Of a stretch of DNA of 64,000 nt, positions 9,176 to 29,019 are shown piece by piece; position 1 is the stretch's first letter; every line of letters begins with the position of its first letter. The stretch lies in IMG/VR virus record IMGVR_UViG_3300021376_002797, positions 31,279 through 95,278 of that record. One strand, 5' to 3'. The notes under the pieces are model-generated. The model was not told where the DNA came from and searched no databases. It saw only the letters and a list, made by a program, of their open reading frames with translations. The DNA is from a virus. A program made the translations under genes and the position numbers.

Positions 9176-9179
9176 AATA

Positions 9180-9211
9180 CAAAGATATAGTTTTTTTTTC
9201 TTTTATACAAA
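9180..9211 (-). promoter_or_regulatory. Bacteroidetes primary-sigma promoter (TTTG -33, TATCTTTG -7)
   Basis: TATCTTTG at 9187-9180 and TTTG at 9211-9208, 20-nt spacer. Confidence 0.7.
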
Positions 9212-9229
9212 CTTTTTTATTTATTGATA

Positions 9230-9237
9230 TATTTATA
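9230..9237 (+). promoter_or_regulatory. putative phage late promoter TATTTAT(A)
   Basis: Same motif at 7092, 10932, 13164, 15038, 19575, 20725, 21510, 27843, 29576, 30632, 32233, 34173 (+) and 37992, 42188 (-), shortly upstream of starts including scaffold and MCP. Confidence 0.6.
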
Positions 9238-9257
9238 TGTAAAAGAAATAAAAAATT

Positions 9258-9713
9258 ATGAAAAGAATTATTAGATTAACTGAATCGGATCTTACAAGAA
9301 TTGTAAGAAGAGTAATTAGCGAATCAGAAAAACCAGCAGCAAAGGATTATTTTGTTAACGAAAATTACACTTCAATGCCAGGAGGAACAAACTTTTATGC
9401 GGTAACAAGTGTTGGTGCAGCAACCCCAATTAATGATGCAAAAGGTAAAAGTTTCCAAGTAACAGTTTCAGGTGTTATGTATTATAGTAATAATGGTACA
9501 TGGCAAAAAACCGGTACCTTCAGTGAAACACTACAACACAGATGTGGTGCCAAATCTAACTTTTGGGCGGCAGAGTGGAATGGTGGTCTTCCAGAAGTAG
9601 ATACTGGATCTGCAGGATATGTATCAAAAATAGGTGGAGGATTAGAAACAGCGTCAAATACCTACTGTAATTCAAAAGGAGTTAAAAACCAATCAAGTAT
9701 GGGAATTATATAA
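9258..9713 (+). CDS. IRLTESDL-leader protein (putative head-targeted virion protein)
   Basis: MKRIIRLTESDLTRIVRRVISE leader shared with 13783 and 19623. Confidence 0.65.
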   Translation: MKRIIRLTESDLTRIVRRVISESEKPAAKDYFVNENYTSMPGGTNFYAVTSVGAATPINDAKGKSFQVTVSGVMYYSNNGTWQKTGTFSETLQHRCGAKSNFWAAEWNGGLPEVDTGSAGYVSKIGGGLETASNTYCNSKGVKNQSSMGII

Positions 9714-9731
9714 TAAAAAATTCGATAAAAT

Positions 9732-9760
9732 AAAAAAACCCTCTATGGAGGGTTTTTTAT
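9732..9760. terminator. bidirectional intrinsic terminator
   Basis: AAAAAACCCTC-TATG-GAGGGTTTTTT between convergent genes. Confidence 0.85.
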
Positions 9761-9780
9761 TTTATTAATAGAGTTCTTAA

Positions 9781-10332
9781 TTATTTGTCAAAGATACTTG
9801 TATTATTATCGTTGAACATTTCATTGAAGTCTCTTGTATCTACAGAGTATACCCCTTTGTATTCGTCACCATCCTTCCAAATAATTTGTAATTTAGGGTA
9901 GTTAGGGTTATCATTCAAGTTGATGATCATTACTTTTTCTGTGATATCATTGTAGTACCCTGTTTTATCTGTTACTGAAAACATTGCAAAATCAGTGTTA
10001 GATTTGATCATTTTAATATCTAAAATGTATGTTTTATCAACTACAGAATCATTTTCATCGTAGTCATAAAAATGATGACTTAATATGTTCTTATCAAAAT
10101 CAAAAGTATACATTTGGAATCCCTCGGTAATAGAATCACTAACTTTGTTTTTGAACGACCCAACAGACGTTGGAGATTCGGTATGATCAATTTGTTTAGT
10201 TGAATTAACAAAAATTTGTTTAGTTCCTGCCAAAGGTTGTGATTTTGGTCCTGTGAATACTCCTTTACTAACAAAAGATGAGAAAAGTACTACAGAAAAA
10301 AGTACGAAGATGGATTTGATGATTGTTTTCAT
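9781..10332 (-). CDS. exported protein with Sec signal peptide
   Basis: MKTIIKSIFVLFSVVLFSSF; promoter TATATTTG 10376-10369 and TTTG 10399-10396. Confidence 0.7.
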   Translation of the reverse strand: MKTIIKSIFVLFSVVLFSSFVSKGVFTGPKSQPLAGTKQIFVNSTKQIDHTESPTSVGSFKNKVSDSITEGFQMYTFDFDKNILSHHFYDYDENDSVVDKTYILDIKMIKSNTDFAMFSVTDKTGYYNDITEKVMIINLNDNPNYPKLQIIWKDGDEYKGVYSVDTRDFNEMFNDNNTSIFDK

Positions 10333-10457
10333 AGGTCTTTATTTTTTAGTTATTAATTATTTACAATACAAATATATAGCTTTTATTTTAATTTACAAAA
10401 ACAAAATTTATTTTTTTTTCTTTTTTTTATCCCCACCATATAGATGGGGATTTTAAT

Positions 10458-10865
10458 TGGTGGACCTAGAGGGCTCCGACTCCCTCGTCCGGATCATCTT
10501 GTTTAAAAGACGACTACATGTTTAGGTTGGCATTTTCTAATACCCCAAAATATTTGATTTTATCTTGATCAAAAACAAGTATGGTTTGTTCTTCACTATC
10601 GTAAACCAAAAACCAATAGACCACTCAATTTCGGGTTTAGTGGTAATCTACCTTAGTCACTCCTGTTCCTGAGCGTATGTGATCCGGCTCGCGTATCCGT
10701 AAACTTCTTAAGCTACAGTTACTTCTTGAGTTGAGATTAGACCCAAAGTCTCAAGGTTGTTTAGCACATTGCCATTTAAAATGTGAATCAGTTTTTAACG
10801 AGATTAATTCAGTCCCGACATGCTTCTTTTATTCAACCAATGCCCGTCAAATCCAATATAGGCCC
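10458..10865 (-). ncRNA. ssrA: tmRNA
   Basis: 5' GGGCCUA pairs with 3' UAGGUCC-ACCA, giving a 7-bp acceptor stem with G3-U70. GGAUUUGAC D-region; tag ORF 10773-10708 GNVLNNLETLGLISTQEVTVA*; TATCTTTG promoter at 10906-10899; hairpin at ~10430-10450 downstream. Confidence 0.93.
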
Positions 10866-10944
10866 CTATATCGTAATTTTATTTTCAAAGAACTTATACA
10901 AAGATAATATATTTGTTTTGATTATCCAATATATTTATATAAAT

Positions 10945-12123
10945 ATGTTGAGAAAAAAATTTATCTTTGAAACTGACGAAGAAAAAGATGTTGATGAAAT
11001 GTCTGACTATGAAAAAATCATACGTTTAGCAAAAGGTAGACTTAGTCCTCGTGAAGTTTATTTTGAAGATTCAAACGGTAAAGATTATGGTGACATTATT
11101 GAAGTCACTTATGATGGTATTATTTTTACTTTTGATGGTTTATCTGATTATTTACAATTCTTTTTTCCTGAAGAATATGAAGAAGGTAGTGATGGTGAAT
11201 ATGATGCAAGAAATTATGAAGCGATGTATTCAGGAAATTGGTCTTGGTATGAAGAGTTTTACGATAGGGATAGTCAAGATTGGGTAGAAGGGTATGTTAC
11301 AGAAAGATTTAGAAAAAACCATTTAGAATTAGTTAGAGATATTGCAAGATTTTTATCACCAACGATTTATACAAAACTTTCAAAAGTTTTAGAAGGAAAG
11401 GCGGAGTTTGATTCAGAATTAAATATTGAAATAAGAGATTTTTTAGATACAATAAATATTGGTGATGAAATAACAGAGGCTTATACAGATGCAAATCATG
11501 CGGCAATTGTAGACGAAGTACCAAAAGGAATTGAAGATACATATTGTGATTGTTTAAGAAATGTTGGTGTTGAAAGATATAGTCAAAAATATTGTTTTTG
11601 GAAATATGAAATGGATTGGGCTTCTTGTGTAATGTTATTTGCTCGTTTTGGTACCGACGAAGATAATTTTTTAGATCTACTATTTAATGCAATTAAAAAA
11701 GAAAATATTTCACATTTACCTGAGTATTATGAAATGCAGTATCAATTTTGGGACGCCGAAAAATTTGAAAGTACTTGGAATAGTGGTGTTGAAGAAGTAT
11801 TAGAAAGAAAATTAGAGGATATACAAACTAATACTGAAAATTATAATGAAAAATATAAAGAAATTATAGATAAAGTATCTCAAATTGGAGGAATTAATAA
11901 TTGGATCTCAACAAAAGATAAAAAATACCAAATTCTTATAGATGTTATAGATCCATCTACAGGTCAAATTACATATAAAATTAAAAAACCAAATGAATGG
12001 AACACTAAGGTAGGAAAAACAGATATTGATGGAATAATTAATATAATTTATAACGAAAAATTATTTAATATGATGGAGCACCTTGATAGATTTTCAATAC
12101 TTAGAAATAAGACGTTCCTTTAG
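10945..12123 (+). CDS. acidic hypothetical protein (likely late/virion)
   Basis: ATG at 10945 follows TATTTATA; the longer ORF-track start overlaps the tmRNA. Confidence 0.7.
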   Translation: MLRKKFIFETDEEKDVDEMSDYEKIIRLAKGRLSPREVYFEDSNGKDYGDIIEVTYDGIIFTFDGLSDYLQFFFPEEYEEGSDGEYDARNYEAMYSGNWSWYEEFYDRDSQDWVEGYVTERFRKNHLELVRDIARFLSPTIYTKLSKVLEGKAEFDSELNIEIRDFLDTINIGDEITEAYTDANHAAIVDEVPKGIEDTYCDCLRNVGVERYSQKYCFWKYEMDWASCVMLFARFGTDEDNFLDLLFNAIKKENISHLPEYYEMQYQFWDAEKFESTWNSGVEEVLERKLEDIQTNTENYNEKYKEIIDKVSQIGGINNWISTKDKKYQILIDVIDPSTGQITYKIKKPNEWNTKVGKTDIDGIINIIYNEKLFNMMEHLDRFSILRNKTFL

Positions 12124-13140
12124 TATCTCATATAAATACACCAAATCATCATCATTTATAAAAAGTGAATTACCATAAAAAATATCTGATATTGTAATAC
12201 CATCTTTTTCTTCAATAACATCGATGCTTTCTAATTGATGAACAGGGTAATCCTCAATTTCTTCATCGTCTTCAAATTGAAGTAATGAGTTCATAACTGT
12301 TTGTGGTGTATATACAATTGGTTTATATTCATACTTATATTTTTTCAAACCCAATTCTTTAACCATATTTAATCCTGCTGTAATTGCATTTTCAACATCT
12401 TCTATTGAAACAAATTCTTGATTTGAATGCATGTTATAATAACCACATGACATGTTGATACAACAAACATCAATTTTCTTTTTTAACTGTGATATGTCTG
12501 TATAAGGGTGAGATTGAACAAGCATTTCATTTTTAAATGCATTTTCAATAGCGTCAATTGATTTAATAAAAAATTCACTATCACGTTCAAATAAACGAAC
12601 TCCCGAGCATATCTCGGAGATTAAGTGATTACCAGGTGCGTCGTATTGTGTGATATACCCGACATCTTGTAAAAAGTTTTCATCACATTTTGAAGAACCG
12701 TGACAACCTGTTTCTTCTGAAACAAAAAGACCAATTTTTACTTTATCTAATGTTTTTAATAACTCTAAACAAATAAAAATACCACATTTATCATCACCAC
12801 CAATACCTGTTGGATTACCGTCTTCGGTGTAAGCTTTTAAACATGGAACCTCATCGTTACCAAACGATTTACCAAATGTATTTGGTCTAATTAGGTTTTC
12901 TTCTTTTACTATGATTTTATCTACTTTATGATGAACGGTGTCCGTGTGTGAAATAAACATTGGATAAAATTCACCTTCGTTTAATTCACCTTTAGTTGCA
13001 TATATATTCATCATACCATCTCGGTAGTAGGAGACGCCTGGAATTGTGTCTAATTCATTACAAAGATATTCTACCATATCTTCTTCTTGATATGTTTTAG
13101 AAGGGACAGATAATATTTCTTTGAATTTATTTATGTTCAT
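12094..13140 (-). CDS. M20/M28-clan zinc metallopeptidase
   Basis: SHTDTVH, GGDDKCG, SEETG, YYNMHS metal ligands. Confidence 0.8.
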   Translation of the reverse strand: MNINKFKEILSVPSKTYQEEDMVEYLCNELDTIPGVSYYRDGMMNIYATKGELNEGEFYPMFISHTDTVHHKVDKIIVKEENLIRPNTFGKSFGNDEVPCLKAYTEDGNPTGIGGDDKCGIFICLELLKTLDKVKIGLFVSEETGCHGSSKCDENFLQDVGYITQYDAPGNHLISEICSGVRLFERDSEFFIKSIDAIENAFKNEMLVQSHPYTDISQLKKKIDVCCINMSCGYYNMHSNQEFVSIEDVENAITAGLNMVKELGLKKYKYEYKPIVYTPQTVMNSLLQFEDDEEIEDYPVHQLESIDVIEEKDGITISDIFYGNSLFINDDDLVYLYEILKERLISKY

Positions 13141-13188
13141 TTAATTTTTTTATAAAGATAGTATATTTATATAATAAAAACAAAAAAT

Positions 13189-13773
13189 ATGAAAAATATT
13201 TTATCAAGTTTAAATGAATATAAAAAAAGAAGGATTTTAGAGATGCATACAAATAAAAAATCATTTTTATTTGAGGCTGTTGAAAATAAAACAGTTCAAT
13301 TGGATTGTGTCGCAAAAACGGTTAATGGTATTGTTGTTAGTCAGGCCGATTTATTGGCTAATTTATGTCCAGCAGCTAAAAATACAACAACCACACAAGC
13401 AGGTGCAGGTACAACACCTTTAGATACCTACGTTAGTAACATGGTTGATTGGAGAAGTAGTGTTATTAATGATAAACTTGCTTCTTTTGGGGGATCTAAA
13501 GTTAATGTTAGTGGGTCTGACAGTAATAAAATTGTTAGTTCGGTTTATATTGAAATGAAAAACCCGAAAGAGGACCCAAAAATGCAAAATTTAATAGCAA
13601 CACCTACATATAATTGTGTAGCTCAGGGTACTAATTTAGCGGGAAGCGCACAATATTACGACCTATATTTCAAAAAAGGTAGTCCTGAATATAATGAATT
13701 TATGGCCGCTTGTAAATTACAATGTCAGGCATCACAGAAAAAAATACAACAAGTTAAATATACAAAACAATAA
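13189..13773 (+). CDS. KNILSSLNE-leader protein (putative head-targeted)
   Basis: Leader MKNILSSLNEYKKRRILEMH shared with 15063; Cys motif shared with 13783. Confidence 0.65.
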   Translation: MKNILSSLNEYKKRRILEMHTNKKSFLFEAVENKTVQLDCVAKTVNGIVVSQADLLANLCPAAKNTTTTQAGAGTTPLDTYVSNMVDWRSSVINDKLASFGGSKVNVSGSDSNKIVSSVYIEMKNPKEDPKMQNLIATPTYNCVAQGTNLAGSAQYYDLYFKKGSPEYNEFMAACKLQCQASQKKIQQVKYTKQ

Positions 13774-13782
13774 ATAAATAAT

Positions 13783-14313
13783 ATGAAAAGAAAAATTAGA
13801 TTAACGGAATCAGAACTTTATAGATTAATAAGAAGGGTTATATCTGAACAAACAACAAAACAAGTAACAGTAACTGTTGATTGTACTGCAAAAACATTAG
13901 ACACAATGGCAATGACAGCACCAATGATTACTAAATACTGTACAGAGACGAAGGGTACAACAACTCAAACATTAGCTCAAGAATATAAAATGACTAGAAA
14001 GGATCAAATTATTTTAACAAGAGCCGAATTAGATTCAATTGGCGCCTTTAGTGCTGAGGTTATAATAGATAGTTCTGATAAAGTTTCAGGTGTTTCTTTT
14101 AAAATGAAAAAAGAATTAACTAACCCGTCAAGTATGGGTGGTGGTATTGCACAACCTTTTTATTCTACCGCCGATGGTGCAGGACAAGGAACAGGTAGAG
14201 TTGCGGGTGGAGTAACACAAATTAAACCGTATGTTGATGCGGGAGTAACGACTGCAGAAGCGGTAAGAAAATTAGGTGAAAAACAAGCTAAGGCTTCCCA
14301 AAGCTTTAAATAA
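13783..14313 (+). CDS. IRLTESEL-leader protein (putative head-targeted)
   Basis: MKRKIRLTESELYRLIRRVISE; TVDCTAKT resembles QLDCVAKT of 13189. Confidence 0.65.
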   Translation: MKRKIRLTESELYRLIRRVISEQTTKQVTVTVDCTAKTLDTMAMTAPMITKYCTETKGTTTQTLAQEYKMTRKDQIILTRAELDSIGAFSAEVIIDSSDKVSGVSFKMKKELTNPSSMGGGIAQPFYSTADGAGQGTGRVAGGVTQIKPYVDAGVTTAEAVRKLGEKQAKASQSFK

Positions 14314-14327
14314 AAAAACAATAATAA

Positions 14328-14358
14328 AAAAAAAGGAACCAATTTGGTTCCTTTTTTT
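14328..14358. terminator. bidirectional intrinsic terminator
   Basis: AAAAGGAACCA-ATT-TGGTTCCTTTT with A and T tails. Confidence 0.85.
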
Positions 14359-14959
14359 ATTTATATAACATTCTAATAACTTCTTTATCTATTTTAGATA
14401 ATTGTTGTGTTGTGGTGTAACCTTCGTAAAAGATACTATCTTCGTAAGTCCAAGAGTCGTTTGCTAAACCTAACGATTGTGTAATTTCTTCAATTATTGC
14501 ATGTTTTTTATCTAAAGATGAAACATCATTTCTAATAAAAATTTTTACATTATCGATAATAATAGTACCACTATAACTATAAATTAAACAATACCCATTA
14601 CAACTAACGTATTGTAACTGATTATAAACATATTTAGAGTTAAAATTATTAAAATCACCAAAATAAACAATTGAATTTGCTTCCGATTTATTTTTTACAA
14701 TTGTAATTTTTATACTACCAATTAATGTATTTAATTCTGTTATTAGACTTTTTACATTGATTAAATCTTGGTTAGTGTAGTAACCATCCAAATACATTTT
14801 AATATCTTTATCCCACTTTGTTATTTTATTAGTATTATCACCTTTCATTTGATCACTACCATAAGCAACCTCATTGAAATAAGATTTAATTTGTTCTTGT
14901 GTTTGACAAACAGAAAATAAAGTCATAAATAAAAATAAAGAAAGAATAAAAATTTTCAT
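14357..14959 (-). CDS. exported DUF2927-like zincin-fold protein
   Basis: Signal peptide MKIFILSLFLFMTLFSVC-Q; HAIIEEITQSLGLAND and SIFY motifs; promoter TAAGTTTG 14993-14986. Confidence 0.7.
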   Translation of the reverse strand: MKIFILSLFLFMTLFSVCQTQEQIKSYFNEVAYGSDQMKGDNTNKITKWDKDIKMYLDGYYTNQDLINVKSLITELNTLIGSIKITIVKNKSEANSIVYFGDFNNFNSKYVYNQLQYVSCNGYCLIYSYSGTIIIDNVKIFIRNDVSSLDKKHAIIEEITQSLGLANDSWTYEDSIFYEGYTTTQQLSKIDKEVIRMLYK

Positions 14960-15062
14960 ATGAGTTATATTAAATAATTATAATACAAACTTACGAAAAC
15001 TTTTTATATCTACAAAACTATTTTTTAAAAAAAGATATATTTATTAATAAAATACAAATTTT

Positions 15063-15842
15063 ATGAAAAATATTTTATCAAGTTTAAACGAATCTGAAAA
15101 AAGAAGGATTCTTGAGATGCATTATAGGACATCGGGTAGACATTATTTGAATGAACAAACACCAGACACAACACCAGCATTCCCAACATCCGGTGTTGAA
15201 AAGGATCTTAATTTTCCTGTGGATCAAAACATAATAACAAGCCTCAAGGTTAATACTAATGAATTTACAACAAAGGTACGAGTTACTTTTAATCACGATA
15301 CAGGGGCATCTACCGCAATGTTAGTTGGAACACCTAAAACAGGACCGTCAACGACATGGAAATCGTCATTTGATTGTAAATGTCCTACATCAACTAGTCC
15401 AGACGCAGATATAAGTTCAACTTACGGATTTATAGAAAAAACATCTGGTTTTAATGGAACTAAAGAAAATCTTAATGCCAATACTACAGTTTCAGGTCCA
15501 ATGATTCAAAAATGGATTAAGGAGAGATGTGTTGCGTATTTAAAAGATAAAAAAAAATGTGGACCAGTTCTTGCAACAAGAGGTGAACTGAACGCTCTTT
15601 ACACAAGGACAACACCAACGGATATTCAACCGGGTGACAGAAAAACAATTTGTACATTTGTTAGGGCAAAACAAGGATTTATTGGAATGGATTACCTTTA
15701 CGATCAAAGAAAAATAATGGATAATTTTCTAAGTAATATTGCATTTTATGCTCCTGGAACAGATCAAGAAACTTTTGATAACACTAGCTCTCAAGATTTA
15801 AGTGATAAAGGAGAACTATTTTGTAAAGGTTGGGGATTATAA
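15063..15842 (+). CDS. KNILSSLNE-leader Cys-rich protein (putative head-targeted)
   Basis: MKNILSSLNESEKRRILEMH..YLNE; six Cys. Confidence 0.65.
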   Translation: MKNILSSLNESEKRRILEMHYRTSGRHYLNEQTPDTTPAFPTSGVEKDLNFPVDQNIITSLKVNTNEFTTKVRVTFNHDTGASTAMLVGTPKTGPSTTWKSSFDCKCPTSTSPDADISSTYGFIEKTSGFNGTKENLNANTTVSGPMIQKWIKERCVAYLKDKKKCGPVLATRGELNALYTRTTPTDIQPGDRKTICTFVRAKQGFIGMDYLYDQRKIMDNFLSNIAFYAPGTDQETFDNTSSQDLSDKGELFCKGWGL

Positions 15843-15863
15843 ACCCAATAAAATAATAAAATT

Positions 15864-15889
15864 AACCCACCCCAATAAGGGTGGGTTTT
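15864..15889. terminator. intrinsic terminator between convergent genes
   Basis: AACCCACCC-CAATAA-GGGTGGGTT. Confidence 0.8.
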
Positions 15890-16339
15890 CTATTTACGTA
15901 AATTAAAATGATTTACAATTAACAATGTTGATTCATTATTTACAATATCATAAAATAAAAGATGAATGTATGAATCGTTATCATCTATATTAAATTTTGC
16001 GATAAAACTATAGGATATTTCTTTTTTATTTAATTTTATTTTTGATTCCACTGTAATACTATCATTATTTTTGATAACACTATCAATCTTGAATGTTCTT
16101 ATTTCTGTTTCAGTATTAGGGTAAGAACTTATTTTAAGTAAAGACGAATCTAAATCAAATATAAAAATTTCTTTTAGTTTTATGTCTTTTTCTGTTTCTG
16201 TGTAATCACAAATTGGTGTTTGAAACGAGGACCGACCTAATTTACCATATAAATCAACTCTATATATTTCAAATATGATTTTTTGTGAAAATGAAAAAAA
16301 GGATGTGAATACTAATAAAAATAAAAAAAAAGTTTTCAT
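15890..16339 (-). CDS. exported protein with Sec signal peptide
   Basis: MKTFFLFLLVFTSFFSFS-Q; promoter TATATTTG 16373-16366 and TTTG 16396-16393. Confidence 0.7.
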   Translation of the reverse strand: MKTFFLFLLVFTSFFSFSQKIIFEIYRVDLYGKLGRSSFQTPICDYTETEKDIKLKEIFIFDLDSSLLKISSYPNTETEIRTFKIDSVIKNNDSITVESKIKLNKKEISYSFIAKFNIDDNDSYIHLLFYDIVNNESTLLIVNHFNLRK

Positions 16340-16397
16340 AAATAGTTTATTAAATGATTATAATACAAATATATAAAAACTTTTAATATTTACAAAA

Positions 16398-18614
16398 CTA
16401 TTTTTTACGTTTTGTTGGTTTTTTTATTTTAACTTCAGTTTTTTTATCTTTTTCGTTATATGATAAAATGAATTTTGAACCTTTTTCAGGGTTGTCACTA
16501 ATTACTTTATCAGTAACCGCATCATCGACCCACTTTTGAATGGTTCTTTTCAATATACGAGCACCGAATCTAGTGTCAGTACCAACACCTATAATGTGTT
16601 TTTTTAATGTCTCATCGACCTCCAATTCAAAATCAATTAAAGAAACTCTTTCATACACTTTTTCAAGTTCCAAATCAACAATTTTTAATAGGTCGGTCTC
16701 ATTAAGATCTTTAAAATAAATAATTTCATCAAACCTATTTATAAATTCAGGTGCAAACTTTTTAAATAATTCTTTTTCTAATAGAGATTTTATCTCCTCT
16801 TCCTTTTTCTCAACTTTTGAATTTGTTGCAAATCCAACACCTGTACCAAAATCTTGAACTATCTTTGTTCCAACATTAGATGTCATTAAAATAATACAGT
16901 TTTTGAAATTGATTTTTCTTCCGTGACCATCAGTTAAAAATCCTTCATCTAACATTTGTAAAAATACGTTAAATATTTCAGGATGTGCCTTTTCAATCTC
17001 ATCTAACAAAATAACAGAATATGGTTTGTTTTTAATTTTATTTAAAAATGGTGATCCATCTTCATACCCAACATAGCCTGGTGATGTTCCTGTGAGTTTT
17101 GATGTTGCAATCTTATCTGAAAATTCACTCATATCTAATCTAATAAGTGCGTCTTCAGTATTAAACATATGTTTCGCTAATTGCTTAGCCAACTCAGTTT
17201 TACCAACACCTGAATTACCAATTAATAATCCACTAAATATTGGTTTTTTAGGGTCATTTAATCCGACCTTATTTCTTTGTATTGCTTTTGATATTTTTGC
17301 AACTGCATCATCTTGACCAATAACTTTTGTTGATAGCGTATCTTTGAGTGTTTTTAATTGTTCTGTCTCATCTGTTGATATTTTTGATATTGGTATTTTT
17401 GTAATAAGTGACGCGACATCATATACAATATCTTCTGTAACTTCTCTTTTGAATAAATTTCTATTTTTTTCAAATTCCGCCTTTTCTCTTTCTAAATCAT
17501 TCAAAACTTTTCTTTCCTTATCTCTAAGATTTGCCGCTTCCTCGTATCTTTGACTGTTTATTACTATAACCTTTTCTTCTTTGATTTCTTGAGCCTGTCT
17601 TTTTAAATCTTCAATAATTTCAGGTAATTTTATTTCAACTTGTGATCTAGCTCCAACCTCATCAATAATATCAAACGCCTTATCAGGAAACTCTCTATCT
17701 GTGATGTAACGGTCCGCTAACTCAACACATAGTTTTAATATATCATCACTATAAGTTACTTTATGGTGATCTTCATATCTATCTTTTGAATTTTGAAGTA
17801 TCTGTAAGGTCTCTTCTTTTGTTGAAGGGTCCACCATTACTTTTTGGAATCTCCTTTCAAGTGCACCATCTTTTTCAATATTTTTTCTATATTCTTCTAA
17901 AGTAGTTGCACCAATACATTGTAGTTCTCCTCTTGAAAGTGCAGGTTTAAATATATTTGAAGCATCCATCGATCCTGAGGCATTTCCCGCACCAATCATT
18001 GTATGGATTTCATCAATAAAAATTATAATATCGGGGTTATTGTATAATTCTTCCATAATCACTTTCATTCTTTCTTCAAATTGTCCTCTATATTTTGTTC
18101 CAGCAACAATTGATGTCATATCTAATGAAACAATCCTTTTACCTGATAAATTTTGAGGACAATCACCCTCAAATATTTTCTTTGCTAAACCTTCAACAAT
18201 TGCCGTTTTACCACAGTTATGTGAAACCACACCATTTGATATGTATTTTCTTTCATTATCTAACACCTCAAGATCAAAAGTATTATGAACACCAATCTCT
18301 TCTTTCTCAATAACCTCATGTAGGTTATTATCTTCAAAATAAATTGAGTTTCCAACATTTAAATTTTTTAATCTTAACCAATATGAATCATTCATAAATT
18401 CAACAAAATCATTATCACTTGTTTGCCCAACTTCAACTAAATGGTCTTCAGATCCTGAAAGTTCAGACCCGTTTGATAGTTTTATTTTAAAACAATTTTT
18501 ATTTTGTTTTTTATATAAATTACCAACAAGTTTATAACCCGACGGAGTTTTAATTTTGTATGTCCCACCTTCGTTTTTTACAAGGTTAAAAAATTCTTCA
18601 ATTTTAATTTTCAT
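16398..18614 (-). CDS. clpC: ClpC-type AAA+ ATPase C-terminal extein preceded by split intein C-fragment (133 aa)
   Basis: IntC: SEDH block B, FDLEV block F, VVSHN|C splice junction at 18216/18215. Extein: CGKTAIVEGLA, FIDEIH, UVR M-domain, GNSGVGKT, LLDEIEKAH, FGAR. Confidence 0.92.
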   Translation of the reverse strand: MKIKIEEFFNLVKNEGGTYKIKTPSGYKLVGNLYKKQNKNCFKIKLSNGSELSGSEDHLVEVGQTSDNDFVEFMNDSYWLRLKNLNVGNSIYFEDNNLHEVIEKEEIGVHNTFDLEVLDNERKYISNGVVSHNCGKTAIVEGLAKKIFEGDCPQNLSGKRIVSLDMTSIVAGTKYRGQFEERMKVIMEELYNNPDIIIFIDEIHTMIGAGNASGSMDASNIFKPALSRGELQCIGATTLEEYRKNIEKDGALERRFQKVMVDPSTKEETLQILQNSKDRYEDHHKVTYSDDILKLCVELADRYITDREFPDKAFDIIDEVGARSQVEIKLPEIIEDLKRQAQEIKEEKVIVINSQRYEEAANLRDKERKVLNDLEREKAEFEKNRNLFKREVTEDIVYDVASLITKIPISKISTDETEQLKTLKDTLSTKVIGQDDAVAKISKAIQRNKVGLNDPKKPIFSGLLIGNSGVGKTELAKQLAKHMFNTEDALIRLDMSEFSDKIATSKLTGTSPGYVGYEDGSPFLNKIKNKPYSVILLDEIEKAHPEIFNVFLQMLDEGFLTDGHGRKINFKNCIILMTSNVGTKIVQDFGTGVGFATNSKVEKKEEEIKSLLEKELFKKFAPEFINRFDEIIYFKDLNETDLLKIVDLELEKVYERVSLIDFELEVDETLKKHIIGVGTDTRFGARILKRTIQKWVDDAVTDKVISDNPEKGSKFILSYNEKDKKTEVKIKKPTKRKK

Positions 18615-18713
18615 ATTTTTTATTTAATTTTTTTTATTTCACATAGTTTCAATATTGTGACTATCTGCGTCAGAAACTTTTTCAATTTCAATCCAAGTAT
18701 CGCCTAAAACACA
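18216..18713 (-). mobile_element. naturally split intein, atypical split (IntN 24 aa at 18713-18642; IntC 133 aa at 18614-18216), no endonuclease
   Basis: GEPG|[12 protein letters not shown]...ETM* and MKIKIEE...SHN|CGKT; ligation restores Walker A GEPGCGKT. Confidence 0.9.
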
Positions 18714-18932
18714 ACCTGGTTCACCTAATATAATAGGGTTATTTTTCTTTCTTCTTGAAAGGATTTGTGCAATTCTATTAATCTCATTTTCTCTACCTAC
18801 AACAGGATCTAATTTTCCTTCTTCAGCTAGTTTTATAAGGTCTCTTGAAAAGTTATCTAAAACAGGGGTTTTAGTTTTTGTTTCTGTTTGTTTATTTTTT
18901 GATTTTTCCATATCGTCAAATGATTCAATCAT
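18639..18932 (-). CDS. clpC: ClpC N-extein (start of AAA1, no Clp N-domain) fused to split intein N-fragment
   Basis: [46 protein letters not shown] then CVLGDTWI. Confidence 0.9.
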
Positions 18933-19005
18933 AATAATCTTTTTAATTTTTTATTTGTTTAAAAGTTAATTAAATAAAGACCAATAATCAATATTTTTTA
19001 TTTTT

Positions 19006-19090
19006 TTGTCATCATGTCAGATATACTGACATTTTGTCATGTTATAATTTGAAAACATTAAAATTTACTTATTTGGCATTTATTTGGTGT
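19006..19090. promoter_or_regulatory. palindromic operator cluster plus sigma54-like TGGCA element between divergent clpC and UVR genes
   Basis: ATGTCAG-ATATA-CTGACAT 19014-19032, TGACA-TTT-TGTCA 19027-19039, TGGCA 19074-19078. Confidence 0.45.
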
Positions 19091-19129
19091 AAAATCTTAC
19101 CAAAATAAACTTATAAATAAAATAAAATT

Positions 19130-19495
19130 ATGTTTAGTAGAAATTTTGAAAAATTATTTAATGAACTATGGTCATCAGATCCATTTTTTAATGGTGATAA
19201 TTGGGAAAGAAAAAACTATAAGTCCGAAGATGGTAGTATTTCATTTACTTACATTACAAACAAACGAGGAGGACTGAATAAACAAGATGAAATATCATTA
19301 TTAAAACAAAAACTTGATATTGCAGTTGATGAACAAAATTTTGAGGAGGCGGTAGAACTCAGAGACAAAATTAAAAATTTAGAGAAAAATAAAGAAGAAT
19401 TTACAAAACTTAATAAAGAACTAGATGAATGTTTAAAAAAACAAGATTTTGAAAATGCAATCAAATTAAGAGATAAAATTAGAAGTTTAAAATAA
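19130..19495 (+). CDS. tandem UVR (UvrB/UvrC motif) protein, McsA-like candidate Clp adaptor
   Basis: AVDEQNFEEAVELRDKI and CLKKQDFENAIKLRDKI. Confidence 0.8.
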   Translation: MFSRNFEKLFNELWSSDPFFNGDNWERKNYKSEDGSISFTYITNKRGGLNKQDEISLLKQKLDIAVDEQNFEEAVELRDKIKNLEKNKEEFTKLNKELDECLKKQDFENAIKLRDKIRSLK

Positions 19496-19517
19496 AAATG
19501 TTCTTATTTTAGTTTTG

Positions 19518-19546
19518 AACCTGTCCGTGAGGATGGGTTTTTTTTT
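19518..19546 (+). terminator. intrinsic terminator
   Basis: AACCTGTCC-GTGA-GGATGGGTT followed by a T run. Confidence 0.7.
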
Positions 19547-19622
19547 GATTTATGGTTTTTTTTATTAATCGTTATATTTATTATAAAAAGATAATAAAAA
19601 AATAAAAATAACAAAAAAAATT

Positions 19623-19937
19623 ATGAAAAGAGTTATTAGATTAACAGAATCAGATCTTACAAGAATTGTAAGACGAGTTATTAAAGAATCAAAAGGGGTT
19701 ATAAATGAGGCGTATGAGCCTGGTGCCACATTCGAAGTGGGCGAAATAACATACACTATTGAAGGTAGAGGCACTTTAGGACCTAATGGAGAACAATGTT
19801 TTTTCACAATGCAATTCAATGGTGGCGGTAAAAGATATGACGTAAGTGAAAAAACAATCAATAATATTCAAGATGCGAATTTAAAAGCGACTCTTCAAAC
19901 TATTATGAGAACAGTAAAGAGAGAAATAGGTTGTTAA
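19623..19937 (+). CDS. IRLTESDL-leader protein (putative head-targeted)
   Basis: MKRVIRLTESDLTRIVRRVIKE..VINE. Confidence 0.65.
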   Translation: MKRVIRLTESDLTRIVRRVIKESKGVINEAYEPGATFEVGEITYTIEGRGTLGPNGEQCFFTMQFNGGGKRYDVSEKTINNIQDANLKATLQTIMRTVKREIGC

Positions 19938-20371
19938 TTTAAGATAAGTAAATTATTTTTATTTGCAAATTTTAAAGTCGTTGAGTTATAATCTTTTTCA
20001 AAATAAAATTGTTTTACACTTTTTTCATTCTTATTAAGATTAATAGTTAAACTAATATATATTTTTGATGAGGGGTCTGAAGATCCCTCATTGTATTTTA
20101 TATTAAATACGTTATAACTAATCGTATCAATTGATAATATTTTATCAACACTTTTGAATTTACCTAGTTTAGTTGTAATTATTTTTTTATCAAAATCAAT
20201 CATAAAAGTTTGATTTATATCAATATTAAATCCATTACCTAATAAATTTTTTTCACCGACATTACCAAAAGATGATGAAAAATTAAAACTGGAAACAATC
20301 ACAAAAATTGATTGGGACATTAAATTAAGTGATGCGATTGTAAATAATAAAGTTAAAATCAAATTTTTCAT
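19934..20371 (-). CDS. exported protein with Sec signal peptide
   Basis: MKNLILTLLFTIASLNLMS-Q; promoter TATATTTG 20412-20405; stop overlaps the partner's stop (TTAA). Confidence 0.7.
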   Translation of the reverse strand: MKNLILTLLFTIASLNLMSQSIFVIVSSFNFSSSFGNVGEKNLLGNGFNIDINQTFMIDFDKKIITTKLGKFKSVDKILSIDTISYNVFNIKYNEGSSDPSSKIYISLTINLNKNEKSVKQFYFEKDYNSTTLKFANKNNLLILN

Positions 20372-20464
20372 GAGGTTTAATTTTTTAGGTGAATAATTAT
20401 ACTACAAATATAATCATTTTTCTTGATTTAAAAAACTTTTCTAATATTTTTAGAATAAAAAATT

Positions 20465-20713
20465 ATGGCAATTAAAAGAACTGATATTAACGGAACCAAA
20501 ATTACTTGTGAAATAGAATCAAGTAACCTTAAAACAACTATATACGACACCGAATCTAATAAATTAATAGTGGAGTTCAAAAACGGATTTAAATACGAAT
20601 ACGATGAGGTCCCCCATAATATCTACGCACAGTTTAGATTATCGGATTCCCAAGGTAAATTTTTCAATACCCAAATTGCAAAAACATTCAAATACAAAAA
20701 ATTAGATAAATAA
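20465..20713 (+). CDS. KTSC domain protein
   Basis: SSNL..YD....L.VEFKNG..YEYDEVP......SDSQGKFFN..I. Confidence 0.85.
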   Translation: MAIKRTDINGTKITCEIESSNLKTTIYDTESNKLIVEFKNGFKYEYDEVPHNIYAQFRLSDSQGKFFNTQIAKTFKYKKLDK

Positions 20714-20735
20714 TTTTCACGCCATATTTATATAC

Positions 20736-21488
20736 ATGGCAAGTTCTGAAAAAATAATAAATAGTTTTTATCTTCAAGACGAATTTAACCCAAATGTGTG
20801 GGATAATTCCGACAATCCAAAAACGGTAAAACTAAAACCTGAAATTAGAGAAAGACTTTTAAGAGTTGCAAATCTTTTTATTGAATTTTTAGATACGGAT
20901 CTTTTTATTCAAGATGTCATTTTTGTAGGTTCACTTGTTGGTTACAATTGGAGTGAATTTTCCGATTTTGACATCCATATATTAATCGATCTTGATGAAT
21001 CAGAAAATAGAGAAATGACAGAAGAGTTGTTCAGACTTAAAAAAACAGTGTTTAACGCAGCTCACGACATTTTTATAAAGGGTTCTGAAACGGAATTATA
21101 TGTACAAGACGCAAATGAAAAAAATGAAAGTCAAGGGGTTTATTCTTTATTAAATGACGAGTGGTTAAAAATACCAAAAAAAGAAAATTTCAAAGTAGAT
21201 AAGAAAAAATTAATGACCAAAGTTGACCAATGGATGGATATTATTGATGGTGTTTTGGAAAATGCCGAAGATGAAGATATTGAAGATGCTGTTAAACTTG
21301 TAAAAAAATATAGAGAAAAATTAAGAAAATATAGAACTTGTGGATTACAAAAAGAGGGTGAATATTCTTATGAAAATTTGGTCTTTAAATTTTTAAGAAG
21401 AAACGGTTATATAGGAAAATTAGAAAACTTTAAAAACGAGTTTATAGATAAAAAACTATCTTTAGAACAAGAAAATAAAGAATACTAA
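20736..21488 (+). CDS. Pol-beta-superfamily nucleotidyltransferase
   Basis: GSLVGYNWSEFSDFDIH (GS..DxD) plus third acidic residue in ELYVQD. Confidence 0.75.
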   Translation: MASSEKIINSFYLQDEFNPNVWDNSDNPKTVKLKPEIRERLLRVANLFIEFLDTDLFIQDVIFVGSLVGYNWSEFSDFDIHILIDLDESENREMTEELFRLKKTVFNAAHDIFIKGSETELYVQDANEKNESQGVYSLLNDEWLKIPKKENFKVDKKKLMTKVDQWMDIIDGVLENAEDEDIEDAVKLVKKYREKLRKYRTCGLQKEGEYSYENLVFKFLRRNGYIGKLENFKNEFIDKKLSLEQENKEY

Positions 21489-21528
21489 ATAAATTACTAT
21501 TTATTGATATATTTATATATAAAAAACT

Positions 21529-21720
21529 ATGCCGACAACTGCTTGTACAGATAATTATTATAACACCGTAGTAGTAGGGTATGTCCCTGGAACAGGTGAT
21601 ACGGTAGGTCAAGTAGTAACATTTACTACACCTAAACCTGAATGGACAGACGCAAATAACCAACAGGCAAAACAGTGTAATGCAGTTGCTCTTGGCGGAT
21701 TTAATGGACTAAACAATTAA
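21529..21720 (+). CDS. small hypothetical late protein
   Basis: TATTTATA and A-rich leader; in line with the head operon. Confidence 0.6.
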   Translation: MPTTACTDNYYNTVVVGYVPGTGDTVGQVVTFTTPKPEWTDANNQQAKQCNAVALGGFNGLNN

Positions 21721-21732
21721 AAAAACAAAAAA

Positions 21733-23061
21733 ATGGCAGATTTAAAACCTTTAGGTAGTGAAAAATTACAAGGTATGGAAAAAATTAACCGTATCATGGA
21801 GATTGCTAGATATAAAGAAACACCTAAAAATTTAGTCAACGAAGTTTCATCAGTTGATTATACTATAACTTTGGCTGACGGTAAGACTTATGGTATAGTT
21901 AAAGAAAAATTAGGTTATATAATTAAAAGTGGATTGAATGAATCAACAATGGATTATGTTGATATTATGAGACACAGAAAACACTACAGGTCATATTCTG
22001 AAGCTATGAAAAAACTAAACTTGATGGCATCTGAAATCAATAGAGTTACAGGTTATGATGAAAATATTTCGTTAATTGGTGAGCAAACTGACTTAAAAAA
22101 AAAATTCGTATTAAAACTTCCTAAACCAAAAGCAGATAAACCCGCTGGAGAAACCACACCACCAGCACCTCCTACTGGTGATATGGGAGCACCACCTGCG
22201 TCTTCTGAACCCCCTGCACCTCCTGCCGGTGATATGGATATGGGTGCACCACCTGCACCTCCTGCCGGTGATATGGATATGGGTGCACCACCTACTGGTG
22301 ATACAGGAACACCACCAACAGACGATATGGGATCACCCAATGATGATAACATGGGAATGCCACCAACAGATGATATGGGAATGGCTGAAACACCTCCACC
22401 CCCTATGGATGATATAGGAATGGAAGACGAAGGTGAAGAAGAGCCACAAGGACCAACTGGTTTAAAATCAATTCAAAAATTAACAGGTAGATTAAGTCAA
22501 AAAATTCGTGCCTTTGAAAAAGAAAAGGGTATGGATTCTCAAGACATTAAATATGTTTTAAATTCAATAATTTCAGCATTAGAACTTGAAAACTTAGACG
22601 AAGACGATAAAGATGATATAATCTCTAAATTTGACGAGTCTGATGAGTATGGTGAAGAAGGTGCAGGAGAATTGGATTTAGGAGATGAAGATACAGGTAT
22701 AGAAGATAATATGGATATGGGTAATGATATGGGAGGTACTCCACCCCCACCACCAGCAAATAATATGATGGAATCAAAAGTAGATAAATTATTAAAATCA
22801 TACTTCAAAATTTCTGAAAAAGAAAAACCAATTTTAGAAGAAAAGAAAAAGAAAGACTTCTTAAAACAAAAACTACAAAGACTTGATGTAAAAAAAGAAT
22901 TTGTAAAATTAAGTGAAAGTTTATCACAATTAGAAGCGGCAAACGAATTTCACAAAAAATATAAAAACGCTAAATTTATTGGTAAAACAAATAAAGAAAA
23001 TTTAGTTTTTGTTGTTGAAGGAAAACAATATAGAATAACACCAAGAGGGAGGGTTATATGA
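21733..23061 (+). CDS. Pro/Asp/Met-rich low-complexity head-region protein
   Basis: PPAGDMDMGAPPA repeats; several L/I-x-E sites. Confidence 0.7.
   Translation: MADLKPLGSEKLQGMEKINRIMEIARYKETPKNLVNEVSSVDYTITLADGKTYGIVKEKLGYIIKSGLNESTMDYVDIMRHRKHYRSYSEAMKKLNLMASEINRVTGYDENISLIGEQTDLKKKFVLKLPKPKADKPAGETTPPAPPTGDMGAPPASSEPPAPPAGDMDMGAPPAPPAGDMDMGAPPTGDTGTPPTDDMGSPNDDNMGMPPTDDMGMAETPPPPMDDIGMEDEGEEEPQGPTGLKSIQKLTGRLSQKIRAFEKEKGMDSQDIKYVLNSIISALELENLDEDDKDDIISKFDESDEYGEEGAGELDLGDEDTGIEDNMDMGNDMGGTPPPPPANNMMESKVDKLLKSYFKISEKEKPILEEKKKKDFLKQKLQRLDVKKEFVKLSESLSQLEAANEFHKKYKNAKFIGKTNKENLVFVVEGKQYRITPRGRVI
22213..22290 (+). repeat. 39-bp tandem duplication in coding sequence
   Basis: CCTGCACCTCCTGCCGGTGATATGGATATGGGTGCACCA x2. 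Confidence 0.9.
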
Positions 23062-24234: not shown

Positions 24235-26010
24235 ATGTCTTTATCAAGGGAACAAGCCTTATTGGAATACGCCAAATGTGTAAATGATACTCCTTACGCA
24301 CTTAAAACATATTTACAAACTTACGACAATACACAATCAAAATATGTCCCGTTAGAATTATTTATCGACCAAGTTACGTTAGTAAAGGATTATGATAGTT
24401 ACGAAGAGAACATCGCATTAAAATACCGTCAGGCTGGTGTTTCTACAGTAACATCAGCATGGGCATCAAAGAGGTTGGTATTTGCTAAAAAAGAAAAACC
24501 TGAAAAAATCCTGATAATTGCAAACAAAATGGACACTGCCGTTGAGATGGCAAATAAAGTAAGAGCGTTTGTAGATCAATGGCCGAAATGGATGGGTGTT
24601 GGTTTTTCTGTTGAAAAAAACTCACAAAGACATTTTAAACTAACAAACGGTTGTGAAGTGAAGGCGGTTGCAACATCAAAAGACGCTTTACGTGGTTATA
24701 CACCAACTATATTGATATTTGATGAGGCGGCATATATTAATGCCGACGAAGACTTTTGGTCTGCATGTATGGCGTCTCTTTCAACCGGAGGTAAAGTTAT
24801 AGTAATATCAACACCAAATGGATTCGACCCAATTTATTATTCTATATATAGTCAGTCTGTTAAAGGTATGAATGACTTTAGAATTACTGAAATGTATTGG
24901 TTTAGGGATCCTAGATATTCTAAAGATTTAAAACTCATTAAATGTCGTGATATTGTGCATTATATGTTAAATAGGGCCGACTATAAAGATGAAGAAATAA
25001 CCATTGATTATGGTAACATTAAAGTTAATGAAAGAAACTTTGAAGAAATTAAACAAAAAATAGAAAATGGTGGGTATAAGGCTTATAGTTCATGGTTTGA
25101 GGCCATGGCTAAAAAGTTAAAATTTGATAGAAGGAAAATATCACAAGAACTTGAATGTAACTTCTTAGGTTCAGGAGATAATGTAATTCCTGCAGAAACT
25201 ATGAAAAAAATTAAAGATAAACATATTAAAGAACCTGAAAATAAATTTATGGGTGGAGTTCTATGGCAATGGAAAGAACCTGTTGCCGATCACCGATATA
25301 TAATGGGTATGGACGTTTCACGAGGCGATAGTGAAGATTTTACAACATTTACTATTATTGATTTTGATGAAAGAGAACAGGTTTTGGAATATTTAGGAAA
25401 GGTTCCACCTGATGTTGTGGCAGAAATTGCATATAAATGGGCAACCATGTATAATGCATTTATTGTGACCGATATTACAGGAGGTATGGGTGTTGCAACA
25501 TCAAGAAAACTACAAGAACTAGGATATAAAAATTTATATGTCGATGGAGTGAATCCCACAGATAAATGGAAATGGGACCCTAAAGCAAACGAAAAGATAC
25601 CAGGAATTAATTTTAATTCCAAAAGAGTTCAAATTGTTGCGGCATTTGAAGAAGCGTTAAGACACGATTTTGGTGTTAGGTCTCAAAGATTATATAATGA
25701 ATTAAACACATTTGTTTATGTAAACGGTAGGCCTGATCACCAAAAAGGGCAACACGATGATTTGATTATGTCATTAGCAATGGCTTTATATGTTGCAGAA
25801 ACATCTTTTTCAAAATTAGAAAAAGCAACGGAACACGCAAAGGCAATGATTGATTCGTGGACAACGGATAAAAATGAATATAAAGATTCCTCGGCCAATT
25901 TTAATCCCGGTTTACCTGTTATGACAGGATTACACGAATACTCTAGTGGTCAGGTTAGTAAAAGTGATTATGAAAAGTATTTATGGTTATTCGGAGGAAA
26001 AAGAGTTTAG
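24235..26010 (+). CDS. terminase large subunit (T4 gp17-like)
   Basis: KYRQAGVST Walker A-like, IFDEAA Walker B, STPNG, GMDVSRG and HDDLIM nuclease motifs. Confidence 0.95.
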   Translation: MSLSREQALLEYAKCVNDTPYALKTYLQTYDNTQSKYVPLELFIDQVTLVKDYDSYEENIALKYRQAGVSTVTSAWASKRLVFAKKEKPEKILIIANKMDTAVEMANKVRAFVDQWPKWMGVGFSVEKNSQRHFKLTNGCEVKAVATSKDALRGYTPTILIFDEAAYINADEDFWSACMASLSTGGKVIVISTPNGFDPIYYSIYSQSVKGMNDFRITEMYWFRDPRYSKDLKLIKCRDIVHYMLNRADYKDEEITIDYGNIKVNERNFEEIKQKIENGGYKAYSSWFEAMAKKLKFDRRKISQELECNFLGSGDNVIPAETMKKIKDKHIKEPENKFMGGVLWQWKEPVADHRYIMGMDVSRGDSEDFTTFTIIDFDEREQVLEYLGKVPPDVVAEIAYKWATMYNAFIVTDITGGMGVATSRKLQELGYKNLYVDGVNPTDKWKWDPKANEKIPGINFNSKRVQIVAAFEEALRHDFGVRSQRLYNELNTFVYVNGRPDHQKGQHDDLIMSLAMALYVAETSFSKLEKATEHAKAMIDSWTTDKNEYKDSSANFNPGLPVMTGLHEYSSGQVSKSDYEKYLWLFGGKRV

Positions 26011-28595: not shown

Positions 28596-28846
28596 TAAAA
28601 TTTTTCAAATCATTACTCGGTTCGGGCACCCAAACACTTTCTTCAAAAAGATTTACAGGAATTATTTGTGTTATTTCGTTAGTTATTGCACTATTTGTTT
28701 CTATGTTTTCTGGAGGTAAATATTGTGCTAACGACGGATTGGTTGAGGTAGTTGGTTTATTAGCATTCGGGTCTTTGGGATTAACCTCAACAGAGTCTAT
28801 TTTTGGAAAAAAATACGACAGTGATAAAAATCAAGAATCCAATTGA
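28592..28846 (+). CDS. small two-TM membrane protein (holin-like)
   Basis: SSKRF followed by two hydrophobic helices. Confidence 0.55.
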   Translation: MIKFFKSLLGSGTQTLSSKRFTGIICVISLVIALFVSMFSGGKYCANDGLVEVVGLLAFGSLGLTSTESIFGKKYDSDKNQESN

Positions 28847-29019
28847 TTCTTTTGTTTATATTTTGCTTTTTTAATCTGAGCCCTTCTTTTTACGGAGGGT
28901 TTTTTATATTCTTGTCTTTCTTGTAGTTTTTGAATTTGTTTAGTTTTATATATTTTAAATTTATATAACTTTAAGGCCTGCTCAATCGACTTTTCATTTT
29001 TTACTTCAACTATAATCAT
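28831..29019 (-). CDS. rpsU: ribosomal protein bS21
   Basis: MIIVEVKNEKSIEQALKLYKFK...ERQEYKKPSVKRR..KKAKY; true ATG at 29019. Confidence 0.9.
   Translation of the reverse strand: MIIVEVKNEKSIEQALKLYKFKIYKTKQIQKLQERQEYKKPSVKRRAQIKKAKYKQKNQLDS

Follow-up and report, generated by a model that had tools for sequence, protein, structure and literature searches.

The window analysed here, i.e. the whole stretch of 64,000 nucleotides, corresponds to bases 31279-95278 of a 95,278-bp viral record of IMG/VR (IMGVR_UViG_3300021376_002797), with a G+C content of 28-30%. It contains four convergent gene cassettes, in which one or two genes of the + strand, whose products begin with a conserved N-terminal leader, face one gene of the - strand encoding a protein with a signal peptide. 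The former are called cargo genes below and the latter partner genes. In the first cassette, the cargo gene 9258-9713 (+; leader A; 151 amino acids, aa) encodes a protein with a conserved cysteine pair and a predicted α+β fold without match in the PDB. A bidirectional hairpin terminator (9733-9758) separates it from the partner gene 9781-10332 (-; 183 aa), whose product starts with a signal peptide or a membrane anchor. The second cassette has two cargo genes, 13189-13773 (+; leader B; 194 aa) and 13783-14313 (+; leader A; 176 aa), followed by a bidirectional hairpin terminator (14328-14358) and by the partner gene 14357-14959 (-; 200 aa), which encodes a signal peptide and a DUF2927 domain (PF11150). 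In the third cassette, the cargo gene 15063-15842 (+; leader B; 259 aa, six cysteines) and the partner gene 15890-16339 (-; 149 aa) meet at the bidirectional hairpin terminator 15864-15887, and the partner has a signal peptide, a glutamine (Gln) at the cleavage site and a predicted β-barrel. The last cassette consists of the cargo gene 19623-19937 (+; leader A; 104 aa, two cysteines) and the partner gene 19934-20371 (-; 145 aa), in which the signal peptide is followed by Gln; here, the stops of the two genes overlap (19934-19937) in place of a hairpin. The four - strand products all have a signal-peptide-like N-terminus, and in three of them Gln stands at the predicted cleavage site or adjoins it. 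All the elements of the layout, which an initial annotation had described as occurring four times, were located (open reading frames, hairpins, overlapping stops and promoter-like motifs). The same annotation had described the parts behind the leaders (the bodies) as largely unrelated, which does not hold for 13189 and 13783, whose bodies are paralogues. We regard the reality of this cassette architecture as nearly certain.

The two strands of a cassette are preceded by different promoter-like motifs. On the + strand, the late-promoter-like 9-mer TATATTTAT stands 27-50 nt 5' of the cargo genes, at positions 9228-9236 (upstream of 9258), 13162-13170 (upstream of the pair 13189 + 13783), 15036-15044 (upstream of 15063) and 19573-19581 (upstream of 19623). 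Over the + strand of the whole 95-kb genome, this 9-mer has only 15 occurrences, and it is also present 5' of the capsid gene 32283 and of the head-region genes 30681 and 34184. On the - strand, a TAnnTTTG element of the Bacteroidota type is located 34-44 nt 5' of all four partners. It lies at 10369-10376, i.e. 44 nt upstream of the ATG of the partner 9781-10332, and at 20405-20412, i.e. 41 nt upstream of the ATG of the partner 19934-20371. The promoter regions of the two other partners, 14986-15020 (upstream of 14959; elements at -34 and -61) and 16366-16400 (upstream of 16339), each contain two such elements and are clearly homologous. Motif and sequence comparison thus recovered both motif classes and the homologous upstream regions that the initial annotation had reported. 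From 49 dereplicated cassettes, with motifs counted up to 80 nt upstream, the first cargo gene is preceded by ATATTTAT in 43 cases and by TAnnTTTG in one, while the partner gene is preceded by TAnnTTTG in 37 cases and by ATATTTAT in one. For other genes, these proportions are 29% for ATATTTAT and 12% for TAnnTTTG. Since the capsid gene shares the motif of the cargo genes, the latter are presumably late, and the partner genes, with their host-type motif, presumably early. Among cultured phages, Microcystis phage Mel-JY01 and Flavobacterium phage vB_FspM_immuto have the closest capsid proteins (identity of about 42%). This Flavobacterium phage relative, the TAnnTTTG elements and the Gln after the signal peptides, a feature of exported proteins known in the host group as the Q-rule (PMC5837995, PMC10653852), lead us to infer a host belonging to the Bacteroidota.

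Within the window, four of the five convergent junctions are leader/signal-peptide pairs, which by itself is weak evidence for a pairing rule (p ~0.2). Such a number is compatible with a regional co-localisation without direct interaction, i.e. with fast-turnover accessory genes gathering in hypervariable slots. The convergence would then come from late and host-promoter strands sharing bidirectional terminators, and any co-variation from linkage and tandem duplication. The pairing was examined in 104 related IMG/VR loci, 79 of them carrying leader A and 25 anchored on the UVR-motif gene 19130-19495. In close relatives, the slot between this UVR-motif gene and a conserved 82-aa gene (20465) holds zero, one or two cassettes, each made of one or two leader genes and then one opposing exported-protein gene, with contents that differ by phage. 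The same variability of cassette content is seen in the slot upstream of the ClpC-like gene. Over all dereplicated loci, 13% of the genes are leader-like and 4.8% encode a signal peptide. Of 64 signal-peptide genes, 37 stand tail-to-tail with a leader gene, vs. 21 among 1282 genes of other kinds, which corresponds to an odds ratio of 82 (p = 7e-40). Considering convergent junctions only, 37 out of 47 signal-peptide genes face a leader gene, vs. 21 out of 286 others, a strong excess for leader genes that represent 13% of the genes. Reading by eye, with the addition of leader types missed by the pattern, gives about 49 out of 62. All these counts come from related phages and are not phylogenetically independent, which co-localisation would also accommodate. 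However, the pairing holds over several leader types and over at least 25 partner families unrelated by BLAST, and the rule therefore does not describe one inherited gene pair.

The two genes of the cassette are not equally dependent on each other. Partners are almost never found without an adjoining leader gene, whereas most leader genes have no partner, which suggests a one-way dependence, of the partner's function on the cargo. In the 95-kb genome, related leaders head about 25 genes, most of them without an exported partner and mostly in the left arm, where the sizes of leader-bearing proteins include 524-910 aa. That leader genes mostly stand in tandem arrays without partners is in line with co-localisation; that partners so rarely occur without a leader gene is not.

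The conserved parts of a cassette are at its outer ends. A comparison of nucleotides over 14 non-redundant cassettes from the close clade gives more identity towards the outer edges than in the middle: 88% for leader A, 70% for the region upstream of the cargo, 67% for the region upstream of the partner and 65% for the signal-peptide region of the partner, vs. 57-59% for the interior. In one locus (L089), two partners have an identical start (first 25 residues shared) and then diverge. With the convergent layout, the conserved 5' ends come to lie outside and enclose the variable parts, and homologous recombination at the conserved outer ends would let whole cassettes be swapped.

Co-variation between cargo and partner was assessed by clustering the leader-removed cargo bodies and the mature partners, and the two sets of clusters map near one-to-one. 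Homologous partners face homologous cargo in 19 out of 35 cassette pairs, vs. 14 out of 2801 for unrelated partners. In two of the 16 misses, the neighbour is the conserved ClpC gene, which constitutes a natural control. Two pairs of the window have orthologous counterparts in relatives, 9258/9781 in L001 and 15063/15890 in L100: the orthologue of 9781 remains beside the orthologue of 9258 in L001, and the 15063 cargo is 41% identical to an L100 cargo whose partner is orthologous to 15890. Three loci (L080, L083 and L100) each carry two paralogous cassettes in which both genes have diverged, i.e. a whole-cassette duplication. One cargo family (family 2) faces rhomboid-domain partners in three cassettes. 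In addition, the cargos of L008, L032 and L096 are 32-52% identical and carry differing leader types, and all of them face a single DUF2927 subclade. Linkage and segmental duplication could account for much of this pattern, but a pairing that persists at such low identity and across leader swaps speaks for something beyond them. The family-by-family co-variation proposed as a check in the initial annotation is strong in related phages, with a few exceptions, among which a DUF2927 partner of L081 stands beside a non-homologous cargo, as co-localisation would allow. Taken as a whole, co-localisation without interaction seems to us an unlikely explanation, and the two genes of a cassette probably form a functional unit of some kind.

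Leader A reads approximately MKRIIRLTESDLTRIVRRVIxE, leader B holds ILSSLNE and KRRILEMH, and the length across types is 22-31 aa. Among the window genes, leader codons vary at synonymous sites. Selection therefore acts at the protein level, and we discarded a DNA- or RNA-level cause of leader conservation. In 28 homologues of 9258, 16 of the first 22 positions are invariant, including E22, with I20 nearly so, while the body is about 30% identical. A leader-A profile built from 22 N-termini matches 9,012 clusters (E ≤ 0.001; 50%-identity clusters among 1.84 billion representatives), nearly all from residue 1. In the nine cassette proteins of the window, neither Pfam nor PHROGs has a family that extends over the leader, and in 88 diverse leader-A proteins Pfam has none either. 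A full-text search of a literature library for the leader core string returned no paper, and 50,697 phage records gave no match to the region (megablast), to two cargo proteins or to the leader alone (tblastn). In the AlphaFold2 model of 9258, the leader is predicted as a separate helix (residues 9-21) with a predicted local distance difference test score (pLDDT) of about 55, ahead of a compact α+β domain (pLDDT of about 90). Leaders are modular and interchangeable on orthologous bodies, as the body of a leader-A protein of L081 (A189) and that of 13189, which carries leader B, share 74% identity over 163 residues. We rejected the possibility that leader A is a double-glycine bacteriocin leader, as it has no Gly-Gly site and heads bodies that are too large (80-900 aa).

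The end of every leader type is I/L-x-E, with Q mostly coming next. The residue after leader A is Gln in 122 out of 248 leader-A proteins, and the motif [IL]xEQ is enriched 7.4-fold at residues 6-45 in this genome (p = 3e-6), where it tags 11 leader-type genes. T4-type prohead proteases have their cut site behind the Glu of an L/I-x-E motif, T4 Alt for instance being cut at ITE-6 and LTE-619 (PMC5694885). The T4 internal proteins reach the prohead core via a capsid-targeting sequence that is afterwards removed (PMC5694885, PMC3012670), and this sequence is the only common part of the otherwise diverse internal proteins of T-even phages (PMC3012670). The window encodes a T4 gp21-like prohead core serine protease (Peptidase_S77; 29596-30306, +; 85.4 bits for a cut-off of 27). 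An S77 protease was also found in five out of five large leader-A records searched, a co-occurrence that fits head targeting but does not discriminate, because a ClpC-like unfoldase is present in the same five out of five. The initial suggestion that the leader targets its protein to the head and is cleaved off there is thus backed at the level of sequence by the S77 protease, the I/L-x-E(Q) boundary, the detached helix predicted for 9258 and the leader swaps. That Gln would become the mature N-terminus after removal of the leader, and would so mirror the Q-rule of the host for extracytoplasmic proteins, is speculation.

Leader A, an S77 protease and a ClpC-like gene were also found in four near-complete records of 272-296 kb (L001, L031, L050 and L063), roughly three times as large as this genome, and phages from about 95 to 296 kb thus carry the leader system. 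Some proteins (the metagenome proteins P0019, P0030, P0034, P0036 and P0047, and the top matches of the leader-A profile) contain leader A twice, at the N-terminus and again internally, with a different body behind each copy. Should both leader ends be cut, these proteins would be a polyprotein-like cargo.

The cargo bodies lack signal peptides, yet where they contain cysteines, the number is mostly even. Considering the bodies with cysteines in the viral loci, the count of cysteines is even in 53 and odd in 17 behind leader A, and even in 10 and odd in 2 behind leader B. Together, this gives 63:19 for cargo vs. 197:254 for the other proteins of the same loci (Fisher test, p = 3e-8). An independent metagenome set of leader-A bodies has 87 even and 26 odd counts (p = 1e-12). 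Moreover, two cysteines are nearly invariant in the 28 homologues of the 9258 family. As cysteine counts are mostly even, the cargo bodies are likely to be disulfide-bonded, i.e. to work in an oxidising compartment, and the parity in two sets strengthens the earlier proposal of a disulfide-bonded cargo. When the nine cassette proteins of the window were searched against Pfam and PHROGs, DUF2927 alone was matched and no cargo gave a match; ten long cassette cargos from relatives gave nothing above the cut-off in Pfam, and the 88 diverse leader-A proteins no meaningful match. Fold searches with the 9258 model returned nothing convincing (best E of 0.1 against the PDB with Foldseek, best Z of 4.1 in a wide VIA-align search, best E of 0.02 in BFVD), and a search of the ESM Atlas gave no usable match. 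Two large and presumably late leader-bearing proteins (L106:1252-2826, 524 aa, and L106:3401-5026, 541 aa), encoded at positions 19252-20826 and 21401-23026 of the genome, left of the window, have a PG_binding_1 domain, which binds peptidoglycan, and no signal peptide.

On the partner side, the window's four proteins are unrelated to each other in sequence. The comparison of the 15890 family with 19934 and 9781 gave hhalign probabilities of 1-3%, and BLAST found nothing. The product of 14357-14959 matches DUF2927 over residues 22-200 (94.8 bits for a cut-off of 26.2), and its conserved motif resembles, in our reading, a metzincin signature with both His positions replaced. For the product of 15890-16339, the model (pLDDT 79) shows an up-and-down β-barrel of nine strands behind the signal peptide. 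This model resembles calycins, avidin and small outer-membrane barrels (VIA Z of 6-8.8) and, with Foldseek, LolA, lipocalin and TbpB (E ~5e-3); we read the predicted barrel as a generic binding fold and not as a family assignment. The 15890 family is small and restricted to phages (21 homologues). In relatives, rhomboid partners (PF01694) were detected in L081 and L100 (57.9 and 37.8 bits for a cut-off of 22.6); they keep both the Ser motif of catalysis and His-x-x-Gly-x-x-x-Gly, and another partner family is weakly CAP-like. The rhomboid-domain membrane partners are encoded at L100:8322-9074, L100:10061-10648 and L081:9002-9589. The pairing of phage rhomboids with a specific cargo family is unusual.

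The reading that we favour, with a probability of roughly 40%, is that the cassettes encode a virion-packaged cargo and an early envelope partner acting on the cognate cargo. The + strand gene would give a late product whose modular N-terminal leader targets it to a T4-like prohead core, where the S77 (gp21-like) protease would cut the leader off. Once mature and often disulfide-bonded, the cargo would exit from the virion during infection and have its activity in the cell envelope, an oxidising compartment. The - strand gene, transcribed from a host-type promoter, would provide an exported or membrane protein made early, so that the partner of a resident phage may bind or cleave the cognate cargo of later kin virions. 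The outcome would be superinfection exclusion or self-protection. The effector/immunity interpretation given in the initial annotation, of which this reading is close, agrees with a linked and co-varying pair; it agrees less well with the majority of leader genes that have no partner, with the DUF2927 partner facing a non-homologous cargo, and with rhomboids and DUF2927, which look enzyme-like and not like small binders.

Several other observations weigh against a packaged cargo met by a cognate envelope partner. With about 10 aa, the capsid-targeting sequence of T4 is shorter than the 22-31-aa leaders described here and presumably unrelated to them in sequence, and the internal proteins of T4 are delivered to the cytoplasm and not to the periplasm. 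A second, internal copy of the leader exists in some proteins. About 25 leader proteins for a 95-kb genome, some of them of 500-900 aa, would represent a large load for the interior of the capsid. No known toxin or enzyme domain was detected with Pfam and PHROGs in any of the cassette cargos examined. Furthermore, the co-variation is imperfect and could be confounded by linkage and by shared descent or segmental duplication. In L081, the second DUF2927 partner shares 89% identity with that of the window but faces a cargo without detectable homology, which is a clear reassortment. In L009, L021 and L047, the partners are about 90% identical while the cargos are about 30% identical or of undetectable similarity, which indicates uneven rates and not a tight co-evolution.

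The enzyme-like partners could also be read in the opposite direction, as members of a cooperative pair. In that case, an exported enzyme-like partner would process, activate or dock the cargo in the envelope, at lysis (after holin) or at release, for a joint breakdown of the envelope or a remodelling of the host surface. The catalytic Ser and His motifs retained by the rhomboid partners, DUF2927 as one of the partner families, the peptidoglycan-binding domains of two leader proteins and the disulfide signature of the cargo are all in agreement with cooperation. Nevertheless, several differing cassettes per genome together with empty slots misfit a single essential lysis function, the many leader genes without partner are left unexplained if the cargo needs its partner, and the differing promoter classes suggest that the two proteins are produced at different times. 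We therefore consider cooperation improbable. Still less credible is a leader serving as a tag for another machine (a ClpC-like unfoldase with a UVR-motif adaptor) or for a non-Sec late export route, with partners meeting cargo made within the same cell: in this genome as in relatives, the cassettes do flank the genes for ClpC and for the UVR-motif protein, ClpC is present in all five large leader-A records and the cargo combines disulfide parity with the lack of signal peptides, but the ClpC co-occurrence is confounded with clade membership and equalled by that of the S77 protease, the I/L-x-E boundary shared by otherwise different leaders is what a gp21-type site predicts, and no export machinery was identified.

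No account of the leader or of convergent leader-cargo/exported-partner cassettes was found in the literature. The components of the favoured reading have known analogues, namely leaders for capsid targeting, proteins of exclusion and the logic of polymorphic effector-immunity loci. As for the T4 internal proteins (IPI, IPII and IPIII), a short conserved N-terminal leader is carried by otherwise unrelated proteins, the genome encodes homologues of gp20, gp21 and gp23, the leader ends in I/L-x-E, i.e. in a gp21-type cut context, and the genes lie in hypervariable loci (PMC3012670, PMC5694885). Unlike the T4 proteins, there are here several interchangeable leader types, about 25 leader genes per genome and a leader A distributed in about 9,000 clusters. 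The bodies also bear a disulfide signature and a subset is paired with an exported partner, packaging and cleavage being predictions from the sequence. In SPN3US (gp53/gp54) and phiKZ (inner-body proteins), paralogous head proteins share an identical N-terminal propeptide with Glu-ending protease motifs (PMC5694885); these are few paralogues in one phage, whereas the leader described here is found on thousands of unrelated bodies, in phages of about 95 to 296 kb.

Concerning exclusion, T4 Spackle is an early periplasmic inhibitor of the virion lysozyme gp5 (PMC7677548), and P22 SieA, located in the inner membrane, is directed against the ejection proteins gp16 and gp20 (PMC10883804). By analogy, the partners would be exported or membrane phage proteins that precede the progeny virions and that are proposed to act on a virion-delivered protein of kin. 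Spackle and SieA differ from them in that their genes are not adjacent to those of their targets and are not polymorphic cassettes, with one pair per phage. The pairs described here are several per genome, belong to many unrelated families and are convergent and exchangeable, and the one partner that was modelled is a predicted β-barrel. The cassettes also resemble the polymorphic toxin/immunity loci of contact-dependent inhibition (CDI), rearrangement hotspot (Rhs) and type VI secretion (T6SS) systems, with a constant N-terminal delivery module and a variable C-terminal part, a linked variable second gene that co-varies, and whole cassettes that are duplicated and exchanged. In contrast to these loci, the partner gene is convergent, under another promoter class and behind a terminator, and not co-directional and downstream. 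The partner is also exported rather than matched to the compartment of the toxin in the producer, and no toxin domain is recognised. The distribution of orphans is the reverse of that of toxin-immunity systems, as orphan cargo is common here and orphan partners are rare.

If the favoured reading is true, about 9,000 clusters without Pfam or PHROG family would be virion cargo with a recognisable loading and cleavage signal, and this signal could be used to pack foreign proteins into these capsids. Exclusion or self-protection would be encoded as exchangeable effector/antagonist cassettes, which would extend the logic of polymorphic toxin-immunity systems to competition between viruses. The secreted proteins of Bacteroidota phages would become testable, with a candidate ligand encoded next door. 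Even with a wrong mechanism, the architecture is a robust signal for annotation, i.e. a signal-peptide gene with a host-type promoter standing tail-to-tail with a leader gene behind a late-type motif. A bolder version, which we hold to be doubtful, is that the cassettes form a polymorphic phage self-recognition system: a disulfide-bonded virion cargo would be matched by a cognate envelope receptor or protease that the resident phage makes early, and the infected cell would so sense or destroy specifically the entry proteins of kin virions, with exclusion or a T-even-like lysis-timing signal as a result. Leader A would then be a general capsid-loading signal in a large clade of aquatic phages of Bacteroidota, the ClpC-like unfoldase perhaps helping.

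Finally, the window encodes a head module of the T4 type. Besides the S77 protease, it comprises the large terminase (24235-26010), a gp20-type portal (Portal_T4; 26049-27842) and the major capsid protein of the Gp23 family (32283-34079, +), which is preceded by TATATTTAT at 32231. The close uncultured relatives of this phage have genomes of 97-100 kb, and the more distant ones of up to 290 kb. At the start of the head module, the gene 21733-23061 encodes a conserved 442-aa protein with a leader-like helix near the N-terminus and a long repeat region rich in Pro, Asp, Met and Gly; it matches no Pfam or PHROG family and could be a scaffold or core component. A homologue of ribosomal protein S21 (PF01165, E 5e-10) is encoded inside the head module (28831-29157, -), and is found at the same place in relatives, there as a 62-aa gene. 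The ClpC-like unfoldase gene (16398-18932, -) has an intein-like insert within the first Walker A region and reads as two open reading frames (18639-18932 and 16398-18614), while in relatives such as L081 and L100 it is a single uninterrupted 678-aa gene. An M42/M20-like aminopeptidase gene (12094-13140, -) convergently overlaps the 3' end of 10783-12123, and this aminopeptidase gene is kept beside the cassettes in relatives.

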